DNA of 63,804 nucleotides, counting the filler, from Trichomonas gallinae (Eukaryota), in NCBI GenBank assembly GCA_008369845.1. It is 10 parts of 10 records of this genome, joined end to end, with 100 filler letters (N's around TTAATTAATTAA, not from the genome) between each part and the next. Parts side by side here need not be neighbours in the genome. Positions count along the whole stretch, not along the records: positions 33,324 to 35,550 come from MRSU01001457.1; 9 more parts are not named here. One strand, given 5' to 3'. Position numbers and translations under genes: made by a program. Positions 6,432 through 63,804 of this stretch are shown piece after piece. The notes under the pieces are model-generated. The model had not been told where the DNA came from. It made no database searches and saw only the letters and a list, made by a program, of their open reading frames with translations. Numbering within the stretch: position 1 is the first letter of the stretch; each line of letters opens with the position of its first letter.

Positions 6432-7410
6432 TCACATATCACAATGAAAGGGAATATTCATCAATACGGGTATTAAATATTTTTGTTAATTTTTCTAGCG
6501 AAATTATTCATCAGATTTTCCATTTTATTTTTTGAATATTTCAATTTTACATATAAGAAACAATACTATAGACATAATCCATTGCAAATATGAAGAGAAT
6601 TTCAGAAATTGAAGGTCTTTTTTTTATCCATTTCTTATCCGATTTCACAGTATTTTTTTCCACCTTTGGATTTATGTTGTTATTAGGTTTTTCATTTCTG
6701 TTAAAATACGTTAAATGACAGATATTTTGTCCATTTGCATTATATTACATTTTATTCCCAAAATGAACACTTTTTATTTACATTCTAAAGTTTTTCCATA
6801 TTCACGGATTCCACATTCCACGTCTCAAAAATCGAAAACCTCACCTAAGTAGACTTGTTTTGGAAAATTCCTAGCATTTACTAAGATATATTTTTCCAAA
6901 AAGTTCAGGACTTAACAATCATTATCGTTATTAGTACTATAAACATTATTTCTTAAGATATGTATCCCAAATAGTTTTATTATTAACATATAGAATATAA
7001 CGAAATTAATATATACAGTTTGGATTTGTATCCTTTAAGTATATTGCTACTTAGGATGATATTATCTATTCTCCAAGATTCAGCTAATATTTGACTGAAA
7101 GCTTGAAGTCTCTACCCGATTCCTTTTTAGGTTACGAAAAAATATGGAATTCTAAATAAAACTGAAAAGCCATTTTGCAGTCAAAGCTTTAATTTATCAA
7201 GCAGCGCGATTACCAAAGCCGCCATGTCAAAAATACAGATTCAAAAAACATTTTTATTAAATATCACTTATACATAATATTAATACTTTTTTTTCCGATC
7301 CGTCAAAATTCTTTGAAAACTAAAATTTATATTAATATCACTCAGCAGGTATATATTAATATTCCCATAAATTTTCAAATTCAAAAATCGTTTTTTTTTC
7401 AAATAAATCA

Positions 7411-8196
7411 ATGAAGGAAAATTTTAGATCAGATAATCAGGCCATGTTCTGCCTACCGTCGTCAGATGCGTTGAAAGGCACAACATTTGCACCGATACCA
7501 TTACCTAAACTATCTCCATATGATATACAGCAAAATTCTATTCCCTTACCATCTCTTCGTCCTATTTTGAATCATCCAATGACACAACCGGCATCCCCAA
7601 GATATCACAGATCGCCATCCCCTCAACGTTACAAATCAATTCTTCCAATTTCGATTGAAAATTATAATCCTCGCAAAAAACAAAGTTTTACCGATGAACC
7701 TACTGTTATTGCAATTAGCATTCTGCAGATAAATCAATCAGATTTGTTTATTGACCCACAGCTGCCTTATTCTGAGCAAATGCAAAAAATTACAGCTTTG
7801 CAAATTCAGATTAGACAAATTAGAAACGCGATACTAAACAAATCCGATGAGTCCCGAGAAAGAATAGTCAACTTTTATCATTCAACTACCGCAAATCAAC
7901 AAAATCAACAAGAGTCTACAGAAACAAAATCATCGGTTAGGATGGATAAAGAAATATATAGAACTTCATATATATCTAACAGAAATTCAAGAATTGAAGC
8001 AATTAAAGAAAAGAATAAGGCTTCAATGAGACGTGCCGAAGAAGTAGCTCAGAGACAGAAGGAAGACCAACTCAAGAGGCAGAATCTCTTTGAACAGGCA
8101 GATTCGGCATACAAGCGTAAATTGATTGATATGAAACTGAAGAAATCCTACCGTTCGAAATCTAATTTATCTGATATTAATATTGTTCGTATATAA
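7411..8196 (+). CDS. Hypothetical protein (Pro-rich N-terminus, coiled-coil C-terminus)
   Basis: 261-aa ORF in AT-rich flanks with no recognisable domain. The start could be the next ATG. Confidence 0.7.
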   Translation: MKENFRSDNQAMFCLPSSDALKGTTFAPIPLPKLSPYDIQQNSIPLPSLRPILNHPMTQPASPRYHRSPSPQRYKSILPISIENYNPRKKQSFTDEPTVIAISILQINQSDLFIDPQLPYSEQMQKITALQIQIRQIRNAILNKSDESRERIVNFYHSTTANQQNQQESTETKSSVRMDKEIYRTSYISNRNSRIEAIKEKNKASMRRAEEVAQRQKEDQLKRQNLFEQADSAYKRKLIDMKLKKSYRSKSNLSDINIVRI

Positions 8197-11203: not shown

Positions 11204-11214
11204 AAAACGTGACA
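11204..11214 (+). promoter_or_regulatory. AAAACGTGACA promoter-proximal motif (also 24345-24355, 24362-24372, 43176-43186, 48638-48648)
   Basis: The exact 11-mer is seen five times, each within about 110 bp of a gene start. It is related to the trichomonad AAAGTGAC upstream motif. Confidence 0.6.
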
Positions 11215-11219
11215 ATTAT

Positions 11220-13229
11220 ATGGATCCACAGATTTTTGTTTTCTTTGAAGGAGACAAAAACTGGTGGTGCTGCTACAGACTGAATGAGAACCAGAAGGTC
11301 CACGTGAATGAGATTATAGACAATTTTCTCGAAAAACTTAAGACGATTTTGAATATTAATTTAACAATCGATGATGTATTGATATATTACTATAACTTTA
11401 AGTCACCTATATTAGATAGGATACCATTAGACGATTACAAGAAGAATATTCAAGATTTGTCGGCTGATAATTCAATCGAAATATTTGTTCAAACGAAAAA
11501 CTACAAACCAATAATAAAAAAGGAAAAAATCAATACAGAACTTGCTGCTTCTTTTGTTTTAAAGGGCAGAGAATTCCAAGAAAAAGGATTTAATATTGAT
11601 GCGCGAGATTTCTTCCAAGCAGCTGATATATACGGATATTTGGACTTAGCAAAGCTATATTTCAACAAACATATGAAAGAACAGCTGAAACTTTTACTTC
11701 CAAGAATGAAAGAAATTTTTCCAAACAACAGAGACGTAAACTTAATGGCACTCGCTTACTGCACAGACAGTGCCCAATATAAAGAATATCTAGCGTTAGC
11801 TTATCGACATTTAGGCAGTTGTTTCGGTAATGATAAGTTCTTTCATCTTTTTTCGCTTGCTAAGATCCATATTGGACATAATGAATACGAAAAAGCACAA
11901 GAATGTCTCAATAATGCAAAAGCTATCAATGATTGCCATCCTATCATTGCACAACTCGAAACTGAAATTCAAATCGCGTTAAAAGATTCAGCCAGTGCAA
12001 TAACAATGGCATTAAGAAGTCCTATGGCATATAGATATCTGAGTACCATTTGCCAAATGGATCTTGGTTATTCTAAATTACAAGAAAAAGTGTTTGACTC
12101 GAAAGATATATACTATCAGACGTTTTTCACACCAAAAGCGCTTGCTGATATAGGAAAGAATCTATTCAAATACGGAAGCGTGAACTATGCAGTGACTTTT
12201 CTACGTGAAGCATATTTAATTAAATCAGAAGTCGAAATAGTTTATCAATTACTGAAAATACTGCATATAATGCATAGTAAGCAGCAATTCATGGAGATAC
12301 TTAAGAATTTTATTAATCTAAATCAAAATGAAATTATTCCTGGGATAAACTTCAAAGATTTATTGCCTATGTTCGCCAATATAGATACAAAGCTCATATC
12401 AAAGAATATATCAAGACAGACATTTACTTCTTTACCACCAGGCGGTCTTCCAATTATCAAATTAATGATGCTGATTTCTTGTTTCTTGTATTCATTTGCA
12501 AATTACTCGAATGCGTATGACATCAGACTGAAAATACGCTGCTATTCTAATCCAATAAGAAGTATTAAGTTCGGAAACGTCAAAAGAATGTTTCAGTCAT
12601 GTGACAAGCCTCCACCAAACATAGGAAGGATGCAGGAGGCAAAATTAGCAATTGTTGGTGACGAATATGTTTATACGGCTGGTCCAATTCCATTTTTAAC
12701 AGATGAAGAAAAATTATCTTTCAAGACAGAGTATTTCGCATATCCAGGTTTAAGTATACATGACTTGACTAAGAGCGAGTTCAACAGCGGAATCAAAGCG
12801 ATATTTTTGCAAAATATGTTAAGTATTTCAAAACATTTTAATTACGTCATTTTATCCTTTGGTACAATAGACTGTGCCAAGATAATTCCAAAGGCAATAC
12901 AAGATCTCGAATATTTGCGAGTTGCAAATATTGTTGTTGATTTGATTAATCCATATGTTGACTTGATTCTAGAATATAAGGAATCTTCTACAGCATCAAT
13001 ATATGTTCATCCTGCTTATATGTTTGAAGCAACGCAGCCAATTTCAGATATTTTTAACAAAGTTCTTGCATCGAAGCTTGCAGAGCATAAGATTTATCTT
13101 GCCATTGATAGACATCTTCCTTATGCTCCAACGTCTCATGATTCTAAAAGTATGAACAGTGAATATCATTCAGCTTTGAGAAGAGAAATAGAGAACCACA
13201 TAAACGCTGAGAAAGCACAATCAGTATAA
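11220..13229 (+). CDS. TPR-like helical protein with C-terminal degenerate SGNH/GDSL-like domain
   Basis: TPR-like LAKIHIGHNEYEKAQECLNNAKAIN. The C-terminal IVGDEY...PGLSI...VILSFGTIDC resembles SGNH blocks I-III. Confidence 0.65.
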   Translation: MDPQIFVFFEGDKNWWCCYRLNENQKVHVNEIIDNFLEKLKTILNINLTIDDVLIYYYNFKSPILDRIPLDDYKKNIQDLSADNSIEIFVQTKNYKPIIKKEKINTELAASFVLKGREFQEKGFNIDARDFFQAADIYGYLDLAKLYFNKHMKEQLKLLLPRMKEIFPNNRDVNLMALAYCTDSAQYKEYLALAYRHLGSCFGNDKFFHLFSLAKIHIGHNEYEKAQECLNNAKAINDCHPIIAQLETEIQIALKDSASAITMALRSPMAYRYLSTICQMDLGYSKLQEKVFDSKDIYYQTFFTPKALADIGKNLFKYGSVNYAVTFLREAYLIKSEVEIVYQLLKILHIMHSKQQFMEILKNFINLNQNEIIPGINFKDLLPMFANIDTKLISKNISRQTFTSLPPGGLPIIKLMMLISCFLYSFANYSNAYDIRLKIRCYSNPIRSIKFGNVKRMFQSCDKPPPNIGRMQEAKLAIVGDEYVYTAGPIPFLTDEEKLSFKTEYFAYPGLSIHDLTKSEFNSGIKAIFLQNMLSISKHFNYVILSFGTIDCAKIIPKAIQDLEYLRVANIVVDLINPYVDLILEYKESSTASIYVHPAYMFEATQPISDIFNKVLASKLAEHKIYLAIDRHLPYAPTSHDSKSMNSEYHSALRREIENHINAEKAQSV

Positions 13230-33323: not shown

Positions 33324-33490
33324 ATAAATTATATTTTTATTTTCTATTCATATTCAAAATATTTCTTTACCACTCAAATCTTGACTTTTGATATGCCCAT
33401 TCAATTTCTTTGAATCCACTCACAAATTATTGAAAGACCTTTCAATCAATTGAGAACTTTGAGAGCCGGGCGTGTTTGACACCCACAACA
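33324..33490 (-). repeat. Dispersed repeat downstream of the recombinase relic (second copy at 51717-51839)
   Basis: Reverse complement TGTTGTGGGTGTCAAACACGCCC...GAATAGAAAATAAAAATAT matches 51717-51839 apart from two short deletions. Confidence 0.9.
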
Positions 33491-33605
33491 CTGCTTTACA
33501 TTTTGGGTATTTGCAGTAATGGTAAATGATGGTTTGTTGAAATGATTTATGAGCATCTCTTGCATAATTGCATTTTCCGCGGAGGCCACACAGTATCGTA
33601 GATAC

Positions 33606-34060
33606 TCAAGTCATTCGAGTGGATTCTGAGTCGGGAATATAAACTACTTCATCTTTGGCGAAGTGATTCGTCTATGGTTTTGTTAAGCACAATTTAATTC
33701 TATTGTTCTCATCTCTTGAAATATCTTTAAACGATAAAATTAAAAGATCCGAAATCCGCAAAACTCCATAAAACATCAAAGAGGCCACAGCCATAAATTC
33801 GATATCTTTTAGAGTATCTTTTATATTTTGGCTATCGTTTTCATTATTTCGGATGTTTTCGGCTTTTTACTGTTATCGATTTTATAAGTCGATAACTCTT
33901 GACGTAATCCATTGTAAAATTCATTTAATGAGTTAGATTGTGTAAAATTATATAAATTAAATTTGTCTAAAAAGTAAGAAACTTCTTGAAGAGCGTTAGC
34001 TTTTACAAGATAGTCTTGATACATTTGAATAAAACGGTTTTGATTATATTCAATTTATTG
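33606..34060 (-). mobile_element. Decayed tyrosine-recombinase gene (DIRS/Ngaro/Crypton-like relic)
   Basis: Minus strand reads ...VSYFLDKFNLYNFTQ...FYNGLRQEL...KKPKTSEIMKTI, then after a frameshift near 33821 KDIEFMAVASLMFYGVLRISDLLILSFKDISRDENNRIKLCLTKP*TNHFAKDEVVYIP. This matches YR box I (G.LRISE) and a KSKTD-like motif. Confidence 0.8.
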
Positions 34061-34653
34061 AATTATTGTAAATAGCAAACAATTTAATGACCCATTCTCA
34101 CTTGCCAATCATCATCAAAAGATGGGAGAGCATCAGATTGTTTCAGGCGCCATCTAAGACGTCGGCACAATCTTCTACTTTTTTTTCAATCTCTTTATCT
34201 CTAAAATTCAGAATTTAATTTCATAATACGGGATGAAAATTATATACAAAAGTGACGGATATGGATGCACCCCTGTCTAAACCGTCACTTTTGGATTCTT
34301 TACACGTCAAATCCGACGTGTAAATCAGTCACTTTTCTTGACGAATTTGGATTCAAAATCTAAAGATATATTTAATCATTGTAGAAAATTATAAACATAT
34401 AAAAAAGGGCGAGCCCTACCGCAGCCTTCGGTAGCTCCCGTTCTTGACCACCCAAATTAATTTTTTGTGATTAATGAGATGGGTCGAGCCTGGCGCCTCT
34501 TCGAGGCTGGGCTCTTAGACTACTTTAACATTTTAGTATGTGAGCAACATTTGTTTCACTATTTTTTCAAAACTTTTTAATGTCTTTTAGTGTTTTAAAA
34601 TAAAATATGATTCGTGTTTCAGGTGTTATGGAGCCTCCGGCCCAGGAAAGGAC

Positions 34654-35291
34654 TAAACAAGGGCTCCGTAATCAGGATTCCAGGATCCTCCAGATCAATC
34701 TGACATGTAAAGTTTACGTGGCATTTCCGTTAGAACAAATCTAATGTGCGATCACATAATTGGTCATTCAAATCTCGCGAATCCAAAGACCTGGCCCGAA
34801 CAAGAGAAGCTGGCATGTTAAATACTCGCTTTACAAGACTCTAATCAAATTCAATCTAAATTAATTGAACTAATTTCGAACAGCTCCAAGTTATTTAAAG
34901 GTGACCTCGACTCTACACTTACAACCTACCTCTTTAATACCAATAAAGCTCAGATTTGTTCAAAGATAATAAAGTAGGTACAAAAAAAAAAAAAAACAGA
35001 AAACGCAAGAATTTAGAGATAATTTACTTTATGCCAAGTAAACGACTTTTATGACAAGCAGACAAAACTTTATGATCCTCCTACCCTTAATTCTGACATT
35101 ACAATCTGGTTTACAACAGATGGCGTACGTAGGGTCGTCACTCATTATCACAAGTTTTATCTAGAGCTATCGTTCATTTACAACTCGATGAGATCTATTG
35201 ACAGAACCTAACTTTACGTGTCAATAACCTTATTATTTTTGACGCCTTGATCCGGAGGTTTCCGTAATCCTGATTATGGAGCCCTTGTTTA
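34654..35291. mobile_element. Putative non-autonomous inverted-repeat element (MITE-like)
   Basis: 45-bp inverted repeats at 34654-34698 and 35247-35291 (39/45 identical), TA at both outer edges, no internal ORF. Confidence 0.6.
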
Positions 35292-35754
35292 ACTAATGTA
35301 AAGTAACAAATCCAATAATATTACAATAAATACACATCACTCTTTCTTCGATTTAAATCTTTTAATATTTTGCATCGAACAATTTTCCGTGTAAAGTGGC
35401 TCTAATAGCAGGACATGGTTATACTTTTGCAAAATCTAGATCATGCTCATATATTTTGCTTAATTTTTCGGAATATGTATCAGGTACAAATCTTGGATGA
35501 TATTCGAAGTCATTCAGTTTGACATGCGTGGTCTTTGCACTTGCAGCAAGNNNNNNNNNNNNNNNNNNNNNNNNNNNNNNNNNNNNNNNNNNNNTTAATT
35601 AATTAANNNNNNNNNNNNNNNNNNNNNNNNNNNNNNNNNNNNNNNNNNNNTGTAATTCTTTCAAAATTTGAAAGAAAAATATGACAATCTGACATTGTAA
35701 AATTTCCCTATTTGACAGCTAAAACAATATCAACTTTTAAAAAATATTTATTTT

Positions 35755-36010
35755 ACCCCTGCTTTAATTTTCAAAACCCTTTTATATATATATTTTTTTG
35801 AAATATTTATTGAAAAAGAAATAGCATAACATATAAATATTAATAGCTTTTTTTGAAAATTTTGGTACCACCCCCTGTTTTAATTTTCACGACCCTCTTA
35901 TATTTATTTCTTTGCAATTTTTGTTGAAAAAGAAATTATAAGGATAAATAATAACAATTCCAAGAAAAGTAAAATATCGCCCCTATTTAAATTTGTTAGA
36001 CCCTCTTATG
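35755..36010 (+). repeat. Degenerate ~110-bp tandem repeat (3 units) directly upstream of the ADF-H gene
   Basis: CCCCT(g/a)...TAA(t/a)TTT...ACCCT(c/t)TTAT recurs at about 35756, 35872 and 35980. Confidence 0.7.
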
Positions 36011-36027
36011 CTTTATTTTTTTATTAC

Positions 36028-36773: not shown

Positions 36774-38309
36774 TTATGACTGTTTATTGTTAGTTATTTC
36801 TAATGATCTTTCGACGATATCATAAATTCCGTCGTTAATCTTGATAAAGAAGTCGCGTGAAGGGTTATCATATGACTTGACGTACTCGCATGCGAGGCAC
36901 ATCCTGAAAGCGTCAAGAATAATAGATCTATCACCATGCAAAGGCTCTCTTTTTCCGATTGCAGTATTTCCATATCCGCAGGCTGCTGAGAAGCCGCATA
37001 GATCCGAGAGCAAGTTCGTGACTTCGGCTGTTGAATTGGTCCAAACACAACTAGGATAGACTTTGCCTTCTTCCCAGAAATCTATCGCGCAGCGTGCTTC
37101 AAAGGCCATGTCGAAGTCAACAGGAGAGAGAAGGTTTGAGCTGCCGCGTGGTAAAATAACGAAATTGTCTGGATGGCTGTTGCAGTGAAGCTCACAGAAT
37201 TCGTGATCAACATATGTTCCCCAGAGGAATCCTTGGCGGTGAATGCAGGTTAATACGCGACCACATTCATGCCCAATTAAGCAGAAAAGATACAACAAGT
37301 TTTGAATGTTGACTTCTTCACATCTGATGTCTTTGATAGCATCAAATATTAATTCATATCCAAAAAAGTTTTTCGACTTCAGATTTTCATCTGTAACATT
37401 ATTTTGAGAAGATATATCATCTGTGACATGGTCTTGAGCTTTAACTAGAAGATGTGAATAAGGTGCAACATCATAAAACTCATTTGATTCGCCATATACC
37501 TTGATATTTTGCTTTTCATATACTTCTTGGATATTCTTAGAGATTTGTTTCACTAAATCATCGTTAATAGAAGTAATAATTTTTTCAATTCCAGACAATA
37601 AATGTGTTTCTAGTCTTTTATCACCGACAGTCTTCATAACTACTACACATTTTTCAATATTTGGAACAGGAAAGCCTTCAGCATTATCATAAATCCAAAA
37701 TCCGAGTGGTGAATTTCCAGTTGAAACACCAACACGATTAAGCATAGCTCCTATACGATCAGTAGCATATGTTTCAGTAGCAGCTGTGCGTGGAAATGCA
37801 ACACCTCGAATTTCTTGAACTTTTTTGTCTGGAAACCAACTTGAAGATGCGTCTTGAAGTGTGATTCCTGGGAATGGAACTGGATCGGATTCAATCCACA
37901 TTCCACAGCCTTTCAAACGAATTAAAGTAGAATCTGGTTCATCTGATGGAATCCAATATTTTCCATCTTCAATTGCAATGTAATTGTCTGTTTTAGTATC
38001 TGATAATTTAGATTTTACAAGTGCTGATCTTCTTCCAGAGCGAATTCCAGAAAACGTATTCTCATTAAATGGAGATTTTGTTCCTTTAATTGGTGCTAGT
38101 CCATGTATTGCTTTATTAGAGTCATATGTTGGTACAACAGCTGGCATTACTGCAAAAATAATTAAATCTTCTGCTTTACCTTGTATTGGAACTGGCTCCA
38201 AAAGAGATTTGATGTGTTTTCCTTTTTCATCTGTTGCATCTTCTGGCGCCACAACAGTATCTTTAGATATCCATTGACCTGGTGTCCAAACAAAAGAAAC
38301 TTTTTCCAT
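36774..38309 (-). CDS. Atypical kinase-fold protein, SelO-like
   Basis: SGRRS, RLKGCG, RG......TE, GF.WG.....NSHPDNF and VDFD occur in SelO-like order. Confidence 0.6.
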   Translation of the reverse strand: MEKVSFVWTPGQWISKDTVVAPEDATDEKGKHIKSLLEPVPIQGKAEDLIIFAVMPAVVPTYDSNKAIHGLAPIKGTKSPFNENTFSGIRSGRRSALVKSKLSDTKTDNYIAIEDGKYWIPSDEPDSTLIRLKGCGMWIESDPVPFPGITLQDASSSWFPDKKVQEIRGVAFPRTAATETYATDRIGAMLNRVGVSTGNSPLGFWIYDNAEGFPVPNIEKCVVVMKTVGDKRLETHLLSGIEKIITSINDDLVKQISKNIQEVYEKQNIKVYGESNEFYDVAPYSHLLVKAQDHVTDDISSQNNVTDENLKSKNFFGYELIFDAIKDIRCEEVNIQNLLYLFCLIGHECGRVLTCIHRQGFLWGTYVDHEFCELHCNSHPDNFVILPRGSSNLLSPVDFDMAFEARCAIDFWEEGKVYPSCVWTNSTAEVTNLLSDLCGFSAACGYGNTAIGKREPLHGDRSIILDAFRMCLACEYVKSYDNPSRDFFIKINDGIYDIVERSLEITNNKQS

Positions 38310-38958
38310 GAAAAAATGATTGTCAAAATTTTTGTCAATTTTTTATGTTGGCAAATTTCAAATTGCGATTTTTTTCTTTCAATTTGCCGAAATAAAAATA
38401 CGAGACATATGATTATTATTGAAAATAGTCCATAATTTGGGATTGAATCTTATTATGGCGAGACGAATTCAATTTTAAGCAATGTATTTTTAAAGTTCCC
38501 CCATCTAATAATTTGGAAATCTTTTTCTTCATTCAAATTTTGTGAACTTTTTCTTCATTCAAATTTTGTGAACTTTCATCAAAATTTAAAATCGAAAAAG
38601 ATTTCAAAAATTCTTATATATTTGGTCGAAAAAGATTTCAAAAATTTTTGAAAATTCATCTTTACATGTCATACGATAAATATAATTCGACAATAAATCA
38701 TCCGACATGTAATGTTTTCAAAAGAAATATATAGTTAACATGTTAAATATATAAAGCCTGACTTATTAGTCAACTCACTTTATATAATATTATTTTATAT
38801 GCTGTGTTCCCTGGAAACACGTTTGGATTATAGTGTTCTACATTCTCTCCTATTTACAGCAAAAAAGCGTCATTTTTCTATGTGTTACACGTCATATTTG
38901 ACATGTAATCTAAAGGCAAAATTGAAAAATTTTGACTTGTTAATTGACATTTCACTTA

Positions 38959-51716: not shown

Positions 51717-51839
51717 TGTTGTGGGTGTCAAACACGCCCTGCTCTCAAAGTTCTTAATTGATTGAAAGGTCTGTCAATAATGGGTGAATGGGCATATCAA
51801 ATATTTTGAATATGAATAGAAAATAAAAATATTATTTAT
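51717..51839 (+). repeat. Second copy of the recombinase-element-associated repeat
   Basis: Matches the reverse complement of 33324-33490. Preceded by the perfect palindrome CCTCTCAATTGAGAGG (51682-51697). Confidence 0.88.
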
Positions 51840-61067: not shown

Positions 61068-61132
61068 GCCTGCTTGCCCTTCTGGTGCTGATTCTGGTTC
61101 TGCTTGCCGTGTGCTTGTCTCTTGTTGGACAT
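61068..61132 (-). CDS. Microprotein family copy 1 (3' end in gap)
   Basis: ATG 61132 gives MSNKRQAHGKQNQNQHQKGKQ(A), preceded by Inr-like TCATTTTTAA. Confidence 0.8.
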
Positions 61133-61533
61133 TTAAAAATGATGTGAATACTCGACAGCTAATCGGATGTAAACAAAATCACTTCACGAAGATGTTGGCA
61201 GAAAATTCAGGGTCTCATCGTTAAAAAGATTTTTTTGTCACTTTCCAAATTTTTGTTAGAATTCTCAAATTTACAACACATAAAAATATCTCGCTCATTA
61301 TGTTGTAAACACAGCATGCAGTATTGCGGACAAAAAATCGATTTTCAATTCGAGTTTCACTACTTCGAACAGACTGGGAAAAAAATCGTTCGATTTTTGA
61401 ATGTGATAATAATATGAGGCTCACAATGTAGCGAAAATTTTGAAAGGATGTGAAATTGATAAGATAAATTGACGCTGCCCTTTGTGTGAATGAGATATGA
61501 CTGAGTAAGTGCTCAGTTCATTTCTTTTATAAG

Positions 61534-61671
61534 ATGTCCAACAAGAGACAAGCACACGGCAAGCAGAACCAGAATCAGCACCAGAAGGGTAAGCAGGCAG
61601 CTGCCGAACAAGCCGCTGCCCCAACAGCTGCTGCAGCTCCAGTCGAGAACAAGGAGCAGGCAAAGCACTAA
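61534..61671 (+). CDS. 45-aa microprotein (copy 2, complete): MSNKRQAHGKQNQNQHQKGKQAAAEQAAAPTAAAAPVENKEQAKH
   Basis: Inr-like TCATTT about 16 nt upstream, strongly biased codons (AAG, CAG, AAC, GAG, CAC), TAAA overlapping the stop, conserved paralogs. Confidence 0.85.
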   Translation: MSNKRQAHGKQNQNQHQKGKQAAAEQAAAPTAAAAPVENKEQAKH

Positions 61672-62011
61672 AACTACTAAAACCTGTTTTTACTCAATAA
61701 ACACTTGAATACTGTTTATAATTATTGATTTTTTTTTTTTTTTGAAATCTTTATTTTTTTGGAAATACAGCAACCTACATTACTATATGCATATAGCATT
61801 TAATGCATATCAAATGATTTATCATTCCACACTGTTGAATACAAGCTTGCAAATTATAACTTAACTTGCTAATGCTAGACATTGTATAATATAAATACTT
61901 ATGTCCAAAGAACATGAAAGCAAATAAATGCGTTCAGCACAAAACAAATATTGTTTCACGCAGAATAAATTGCAATACTATGATAAAATTATATATAAGT
62001 TAAACAGCAAT

Positions 62012-62174
62012 TAAATGTTTATTAAGTAAAAACAAGTTTTAGTAGTTTTAGTGCTTTGCCTGTTCCTTATTCTCGGCTGGAGCTGCCCCAGCCGCTGCTG
62101 CAGCTCCAGCCGAGAACAAGGAGCAGGCAAAGCACTAAAACTACAAAAACCTGTTTTCACTCAATTAACACTTA
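62012..62174. pseudogene. Fused inverted pair of microprotein 3' halves (copies 3 and 4) forming a long hairpin
   Basis: A minus-strand 3' half (stop 62048-62050) is joined to a plus-strand 3' half (stop 62136-62138) through a shared GCTGC. Neither has an ATG or promoter. Confidence 0.85.
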
Positions 62175-62430
62175 GCTAATGTTTAAAATTTAGTATTATT
62201 TTTCATCTGTTATTTCCTGCGAATGATCACTATTAATAATAGGCAATTGAAATATACTAAAAAGTTGTGCAAGTTATGATGCCGTCATACATTATATTTA
62301 ATACTGTATTAATCATTAAGCAATATTTGAACTGCTCTCAGATCATATTCAACAAAGATTACCATAAAAAGTGGAATAAGAAAGTGATCAAAGATCAGTG
62401 TTTATTGAGTAAAAACAGGTATTAGTAGTT

Positions 62431-62503
62431 TTAGTGCTTTGCCTGCTCCTTGTTCTCGGCTGGAGCTGCAGCAGCGGCTGGGGCAGCGGCTTGTTCAGCG
62501 GCA
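62431..62503 (-). CDS. Microprotein family copy 5 (5' end in gap)
   Basis: Reads ...AAEQAAAPAAAAAPAENKEQAKH*, with the conserved 3' UTR at about 62397-62430. Confidence 0.8.
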
Positions 62504-63804
62504 NNNNNNNNNNNNNNNNNNNNNNNNNNNNNNNNNNNNNNNNNNNNTTAATTAATTAANNNNNNNNNNNNNNNNNNNNNNNNNNNNNNNNNNNNNNNNN
62601 NNNTTTGGGGGCTCTATTATGCTTCTAAGGTAGCGTTTGCCTATTTTTCCCGCGTTTGCCATTTTTTCTTCTGACTATATTCATATAAAGATTATATTTC
62701 ATATATTAAATATTACTTCTGATTAAAAAAATAATTAATTCAAATTATCTCCAAAACAGACGTACGGCGAGGAAAGTCGCCGTTAAAGATCATATTCCAC
62801 TATGCCATATGTATCCAACAGGCATGGTTTCGAGTCGATCTGAAAAGGCGAAGGGAGTTTCCCCCCCCCCCTTCTCATTGACACATTTATTAATGTTTTT
62901 GTATTATTAAAATATGACATGTAAGCACTTTACACGACAAATATCTGGCGCATAGTCTGATTTTACATGACAGATTGTCAAATAATTTAGACATGGGGGA
63001 CCTTTTGTATTTTATTTTCACATGAACTTCGACAAAACTATATCTATGAACAAGAAAACTTCGACGCTTACGCCGCATATCATTATCAGTAGTATGAATA
63101 CCAGTAATTAACTATTGTATCACTATGTTGCATTGAAAATCATAAGCGTGAATGCGATAATTCATCGTATTTTCTATCACATCTGAAAGTTTTATAGCAC
63201 CAAAAGCTTTCAGAAGAGAAAGAAAATGCAAAACATCATTAAATTTTATCATTTACGAATCTTTCACTTCTACTTGAAGAGAAGTCGACTACAGCTTGAC
63301 GCTTCTTACAATATTGTCTGTTTCGCTACAAATTGAAACAAAACTCGCACATTGTAATTAGTTACTAATATACAGCCAGAATTGCTAGTTTTCATCACAA
63401 AGGTGTCATCTAATATGCATAATAATGCCTTTAGAGTGAAAATTGTGCATTATAATTGATCAAAATTACACGATCAACAATTCCTACTTGAATCATCGAA
63501 AATATCCAATCTCTGGACAACATAATCATTTTGTATGGCAAAAAGGTACTATGTTCCAGAAATTTGATGTTTTTGATCTTGGTTCATCTCATCGAGATAT
63601 TGAATGCTGTAAAGAAGTACTTACTACCTCAAAAATATACCTTTTTTCACTATACACAATCCATTTATATATAAATTAGTTTTTCCATTTTTGCAGACTT
63701 GCGTTCGAATCTAAAAAATTCATTAATAAACTGCGTTTCAAAAGTCAGGTTTGGCCAAAAATTTGATAACTCTCATAGAATAATTCAATGAGTAGTATTG
63801 AAAA

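Follow-up and report, generated by a model that had tools for sequence, protein, structure and literature searches.

The window, i.e. the whole stretch of 63,804 nucleotides of Trichomonas gallinae DNA (assembly GCA_008369845.1) that was analysed, is composed of ten contigs joined by N44-TTAATTAATTAA-N44 linkers at nine sites (8322 to 62603). Since these linkers are artificial, adjacency across them is no evidence of linkage. The IBD, BspA LRR_5, leishmanolysin and Myb genes of the window identify it as parabasalid, the IBD domain having been called trichomonad-specific (PMC11978803). The contig of interest (MRSU01001457.1, Table 1) harbours no intact gene, and has a GC content of 0.34 as compared to 0.31-0.40 in the other nine contigs. 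Its minus strand carries a relic of approximately 130 codons (34012-33618) of a tyrosine recombinase (YR) gene, with one frameshift and with a stop codon in the column of the catalytic Lys.

Table 1. Features of the relic contig and of its repeat elsewhere in the window (positions along the whole window).
Feature	Position	Strand	Remarks
Whole contig	33324..35550	.	2,227 bp, GC 0.34, bounded by assembly linkers
YR relic, first frame	33824..34054 (ORF 33821-34054)	-	End of core-binding domain and linker; ends ...GLRQELSTYKIDNSKKPKTSEIMKTIAKI
YR relic, second frame	33618..33830	-	First half of catalytic domain with FYGVLRISD; HMM ~133-202
Frameshift between relic frames	33826..33833 (~33828, approximate)	-	Frameshift-aware alignment
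In-frame TAG	33672..33674	-	Aligns with the catalytic Lys that is invariant in the family (K183 of P0003)
Dispersed repeat	33324..33490	.	Occupies the expected HxxR-W-Y place; reaches the contig end; without YR signal
Second, internally deleted repeat copy	51717..51839	.	Its 11-kb contig also carries host genes (BspA LRR, peptidase M18)
Perfect 10-6-10 palindrome	34299..34324	.	Precedes the expected start codon by about 75-100 nt

The earlier note on this DNA had quoted peptides from two frames joined by a frameshift and attributed them to a decayed tyrosine recombinase. These peptides are present on the minus strand, and when the six frames of the window were searched (hmmsearch) with a profile of 24 relatives, both frames matched it colinearly and in order: the first with 25.5 bits (iE 2.5e-9, HMM 71-164; the significant match spans 34012-33833, HMM ~71-132) and the second with 42.8 bits (iE 1.4e-14, HMM 136-202). 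As the N-terminal frame lies outside the query that found the relatives, its profile match constitutes an independent check. In the frameshift-aware alignment, positions 75-201 of the 305 of the HMM were aligned over 34000-33624 with one frameshift, one stop and a score of 100.9 bits, whereas 25 shuffles yielded a mean of 14.4 and a maximum of 17.0 bits. The attribution to a decayed recombinase of a parabasalid mobile-element family is supported. The catalytic Arg codon is kept in the second frame (about 33758-33756). The motif of the relic reads LRISD, the place of its D being taken by E in all 24 aligned family members. The minus-strand ORF 33672-33866 holds LMFYGVLRISDLLILSFKDI...LTKP, which is followed by the TAG codon (33674-33672) and then by TNHFAKDEVVYIP.

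A scan of 1.84 billion protein representatives with the second frame (86 residues) as a query returned four matches, three of which are tyrosine recombinases, with P0003 matched by phmmer at an E-value of 1.1e-5 among the 1.84 billion proteins; the fourth, P0002, was a chance NHL-repeat match and was dropped. The word index gave no match for the 64-aa frame, and it was the full HMMER scan that brought up the relatives. The best blastp matches of the relic show 35-37% identity over 116-118 aa, and every one of them belongs to the family described below. General profiles respond weakly: the comparison with Pfam PF00589 suggested in the earlier note did give a match, but one that lies below the cut-off (E 0.036; 14.3 bits against 27.1), the PHROGs integrase profiles gave E-values of about 0.1, and tblastn against phages gave no match.

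The third of the recombinase that bears the HxxR, W and Y residues, the best-conserved part of the family, was not detected in the relic (12.4 bits, a score reached by 28 of 100 shuffles), in agreement with the earlier remark that the HxxR box is not visible and is probably deleted. Likewise, the first ~70 profile positions gave no detectable match (10.1 bits, reached by 58 of 100 shuffles). Two candidate segments were considered. YLRYCVASAENA at 33604 is not supported as the segment with the catalytic Tyr, its score being the same 12.4 bits that 28 of 100 shuffles equalled, and a supposed second YR C-terminus at 35409-35327 (19.1 bits) was rejected, since it does not rise above the background elsewhere in the window (19.0, 18.0, 20.8 bits). 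Taken by its sequence, the feature at 34012-33618 is confirmed as a real relic of a putative Cre-like YR gene. It is a dead copy, frameshifted, with a stop at the catalytic Lys column and with the HxxR-W-Y part undetectable; where an active enzyme has an intact frame and the full catalytic set, Arg alone was detected here.

The two copies of the dispersed repeat at the end of the contig are identical at 117 of 123 aligned bases (95%), with two gaps of 25 and 19 nt, and as the second copy resides among host genes, the repeat ties the relic contig to the host genome. It may be either the 3' end of the element or an unrelated repeat. The segment 51653-51716, with GGTCTC/GAGACC ends and a central palindrome, abuts the second copy. 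No long direct repeat was found on the relic contig, which ends inside the element region. The 34654-35291 stretch resembles a MITE (638 bp, 45-nt terminal inverted repeats with 87% identity, a second inner pair at 34701-34714 / 35210-35223 and a poly-A run inside) and has no coding match in Pfam; 548 nt lie between the arms of its 45-nt inverted pair, which is located upstream of the YR and does not bracket it.

The palindrome upstream of the relic (Table 1) is a possible YR core site, a host motif being more likely. As a recombination site it was set aside and is a weak candidate only, because a near copy (38885-38908) is found upstream of an ankyrin gene. Its half-site recurs 17 times in the window in both orientations and spacings, the window has seven perfect inverted repeats with arms of at least 9 and spacers of 6-7 bp, and the two matches of the palindrome in IMG/VR are about what is expected by chance. 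The window has 17 matches to the 11-nt motif TTTACRYGTCA where 5.5 would be expected, most of them between genes and many arranged as inverted pairs (34299, 34314, 34701, 34713, 35213, 38661, 38884, 38899, 52640, 62915-62972); the motif is likely to be a host regulatory motif or a transposon subterminal motif.

Elsewhere in the window, tRNA-Lys(CTT) lies at both ends of one contig (41351-41426 and 52307-52366, 60 nt identical), and the breaks of this contig are at repeated tRNA genes. Several direct and inverted repeats of 80-120 nt at 61068-62502, probably short paralogous genes, surround a linker, and two to three degenerate tandem units of ~115 nt (35756-36022) precede a gene with a cofilin/ADF domain. 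Long ORFs at 36774-38342 (minus strand), 11205-13229 (plus) and 7360-8196 (plus), of 522, 674 and 278 aa, respectively, have no Pfam match at E 0.05, and nothing in an Rfam scan came near a gathering score.

The relatives of the relic form an unnamed family of ~300-aa Cre-like YRs, the full-length members of which are 292-322 aa long. Searches with P0003 and with the profile delineated a sharp group of 43 clusters at 198-441 bits, all with ENA or Logan contigs as representatives, below which a tail from 174 bits down contains two more family fragments and otherwise other YRs. The family is diverse, with identities as low as about 30% across its more than 40 clusters. The R-K-H-R-W-Y set is complete in 35 of 36 full-length members, and all 24 members scanned match PF00589, some of them with an N-terminal SAM-like domain as well. 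Intact members are shown to comprise a core-binding domain and a catalytic domain with the full R-K-H-R-W-Y set. The AlphaFold model of P0003 (pLDDT 91) has Cre as the best Foldseek matches (E 8e-11, TM 0.66-0.71), and Cre also ranks first among solved relatives in the profile search, with a match over the whole length (E 4e-15). Within clusters, variants are 87-99.7% identical, and intact and frameshifted forms are found side by side, as expected of a repeated mobile family, although strain differences, in place of several copies in one genome, could produce such variants too. The start Met falls within eight profile positions in 30 of 36 members as compared to 6 of 31 outgroup proteins, a comparison biased by the profile having been built on the family.

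Pattern scans with exact short patterns, which may miss members, revealed no close family member in IMG/VR, in the JGI collection or in the 185,579 genomes of GTDB (one distant match among 26 stretches), and the phage collection gave no family match. The 40 JGI loci are distant YRs, none of them above 140 bits as against 198-441 for the family. Plasmid integrases match the family at about 25% identity, the best BFVD match is only 18% identical, and the ESM Atlas returned general YR clusters only. Hence, in the collections scanned, the family appears to be neither prokaryotic nor viral.

One member, KAK8894698.1 (P0193, M9Y10_023135), the one named protein among the 85 cluster rows listed, comes from a 9.0-Mb contig of Tritrichomonas musculus. 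It is identical at 113 of 117 positions (97%) to the first 117 residues of the intact P0125 and runs out of frame thereafter. Together with the window relic, which falls in a different subclade of the family, this frameshifted protein means that two parabasalid genomes carry broken family copies; the remaining members are presumably parabasalid-hosted as well. The Pfam table of T. musculus (PMC11978803, supplement 2) lists PF00589 twice and PF02899 once, along with 45 MULE, 44 pPolB and 19 rve, and is silent on which two proteins carry PF00589. The same table, derived from a masked genome, has no PF00078 and no "transcriptase" row. Since 42.67% of the genome was masked before the proteome was called (PMC11978803), RT genes may be hidden.

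Two trees were built from search hits, none of them a named DIRS, PAT, VIPER, Crypton or PLV sequence, so that "sister" applies to the sampled rows only. The quick tree comprises 84 rows, and in it the window groups (SH-aLRT 92) with all but one of the 40 presumed family rows; P0142 fell outside the family and was omitted from the careful tree. In the latter (48 rows, rooted on two IMG/VR integrases), the window groups with 22 family rows with a support of 99/99, its own row being 42% filled and long-branched. The sister group of the family (support 98/94) is a clade, itself supported at 99/95, in which the three RT-linked rows of the tree are all found together with several animal YRs. The family does not nest among the retrotransposon YRs but forms, given the sampling of search hits, a separate clade beside the RT-linked one. 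Of the phylogeny proposed in the earlier note, with DIRS, Crypton and Polinton-like-virus YRs, the placement of the relic was thus obtained, but within search hits instead of those named rows. The membership of the relic in an unnamed parabasalid family of putative YRs is in this way shown.

The statement of the earlier note that no RT or RNase H lies nearby proved right for this contig, on which "nearby" amounts to at most ~1.5 kb upstream of the relic. Neither RT nor RNase H nor gag was matched in the window by Pfam on six read-through contig frames and by RT and gag profiles, the RT profile being derived from eight distant sequences and therefore able to miss a decayed RT. The RT frame of the fetched retroelement loci extends over the beginning of the YR, and the nearest relatives of the family with readable context are gag-RT-YR retroelements. 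The order gag(zf-CCHC)-RT-YR was seen at L004, L010 and L013, and loci L003, L004, L006-L011, L013-L015 and L018 represent a multi-copy metagenome YR family with 23-27% identity to P0003. Family proteins mostly come from short contigs: for 88 of 109, the contig does not exceed 1.75 kb (median 1,253), and the median of 1,270 (n=43) compares with 3,516 (n=68) for the other YR matches (p 3e-10; nine NCBI-genome rows were excluded, and two of the 68 turned out afterwards to be family members). Short contigs can also stem from low coverage or from transcript assemblies. Five of the 109 are on contigs of at least 4.5 kb, four of these (5,993-6,972 nt) having the size of a whole YR retrotransposon. 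The contig sizes and the absence of RT suggest that the YR may be the sole gene of the element.

We moderately favour the explanation that the family consists of RT-less, YR-only DNA transposons that work like Cryptons, and that the relic is a dead copy of one. An intact member would be an element of roughly 1.2-1.7 kb with a single gene, and a genome would have several diverged copies of it. On the pattern of Cre and of the model proposed for Cryptons (PMC3212892), four YR subunits are predicted to bind the two element ends and to cut via 3'-phosphotyrosine links, a Holliday junction being formed next; the element would be released as a circle and recombined into a short matching target.

It seems rather unlikely that the relic is instead the YR frame of a Ngaro/DIRS-type retrotransposon, the gag and RT/RNase H of which were lost or decayed here and, in the relatives, lie beyond the ends of the short contigs. 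The RT-linked rows of the sister clade, the four family contigs of 5,993-6,972 nt and the little upstream DNA that is left here, part of it a MITE-like insert, would fit such an origin, but no RT, RNase H or gag signal is found on the relic contig, the other YR matches come from far longer contigs than the family does, the masked T. musculus annotation has no RT row in its Pfam table, and NeSL is the only class I family that PMC12289875 names for seven trichomonads. We hold it to be improbable that an endogenous Maverick/Polinton-like virus of parabasalids carried the YR, as cargo or as its integrase, and that the relic is a viral scrap. Maverick/Polinton-like elements are very abundant in parabasalid genomes, and a YR can serve for insertions of the PLV type (PMC10120064); against this, neither capsid nor packaging ATPase nor pPolB was found on the 2.2-kb contig, the pattern scans of IMG/VR and the BFVD search gave no close relative, and two PF00589 entries face 44 pPolB and 19 rve in T. 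musculus (PMC11978803, supplement 2).

Slightly harder still to credit is a family of domesticated or laterally acquired host genes, which would make the relic an ordinary pseudogene. The conserved length and start of the proteins, the low count of PF00589 in the T. musculus table and the recurrence of the upstream motif in the intergenic DNA of the window speak for host genes, whereas the division into more than 40 clusters of such low identity and the broken copies in both genomes with a known host speak against them, as does the fact that searches with P0003 and the profile named no member from T. vaginalis, T. foetus or Histomonas. Finally, we consider it very improbable that the 2.2-kb contig entered the assembly from a bacterium or another organism: it has no host gene, and the full-length family is Cre-like with plasmid integrases among its distant matches, but the contig has the same GC content as the rest and a repeat in common with a host-gene contig, a family member exists in T. 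musculus, and the pattern scan of GTDB found no close one.

A YR family had been flagged in the earlier note as notable for trichomonads, and YR elements are indeed absent from the trichomonad inventory of transposable elements in Table 2 of PMC12289875, which comprises DDE transposons, Mavericks, Helitrons and one non-LTR family. Unclassified repeats make up 17-30% of trichomonad genomes (PMC13735942, PMC12589397), and no YR, DIRS, Ngaro or Crypton entry was found by term among the matches listed for the supplements of PMC13735942 and PMC12289875. Among the literature matches listed there was no publication on YR elements in parabasalids, although a Repbase or Dfam entry could exist; the family is apparently undescribed. 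It would add an integration chemistry to the parabasalid lineage. The locus itself is a dead fragment, and its value is that of a pointer to the family. Poulter and Butler 2015 (quoted in PMC6681497) proposed that a YR DNA element combined with a Gypsy-type RT/RH to give rise to the YR retrotransposons, an origin on which the family bears if it is RT-less. Parabasalids might then, as we suggest with some reserve, harbour diverse and still-intact single-gene YR DNA transposons, the enzyme of which, sister to Ngaro/DIRS YRs, would be a living RT-less counterpart of the proposed YR donor and a source of nucleus-active Cre-like enzymes.

Among known systems compared with the family, the Ngaro-type YR retrotransposons, with the order gag - RT/RNase H - YR, were represented by loci L004, L010, L012, L013, L016 and L024, which we take to be Ngaro-type from their gene order, not from named reference elements. 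Their YRs and those of the family are alike of PF00589 type, with the motifs GFLR.SE, SKTDQ, HSFR.G.A and GRW.S..Y, and they form the nearest clade in both trees. They differ in having only 24-28% identity to P0003 and in standing as a separate clade, and no RT, RH or gag was found on the relic contig or in the Pfam table of the masked T. musculus genome (PMC11978803, supplement 2). The earlier note had called the motifs hallmarks of the YRs of DIRS/Ngaro retroelements and Cryptons; the family falls in its own well-supported clade, its assignment to DIRS, Ngaro or Cryptons is not shown, and the Crypton marker domains were not found in it.

The VIPER and TATE elements of kinetoplastids, which were set beside the family by description only, are likewise YR elements of another protist lineage and often decayed, but they carry RT/RH (PMC6681497). 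Cre of phage P1 is the best solved relative by profile and by fold and has the same catalytic residues, although its identity to the family is about 18%, and a lox-like site is known for none of the elements here. Cryptons (CryptonF/S/A/I; Kojima and Jurka 2011, PMC3212892) would share with the family the YR-only gene content and the circle-based movement that are predicted for it. In Table 1 of that paper their hosts are fungi, animals and stramenopiles only, and the DUF3504, GCR1_C and NDC10-type domains that mark them were found in none of 24 family members (E 0.05). In a broader usage, the name Crypton covers all DNA transposons of eukaryotes that have a YR and says nothing of a common origin (PMC13465315). 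In its mode of action the family most likely resembles Cryptons, but we do not assign it to them.
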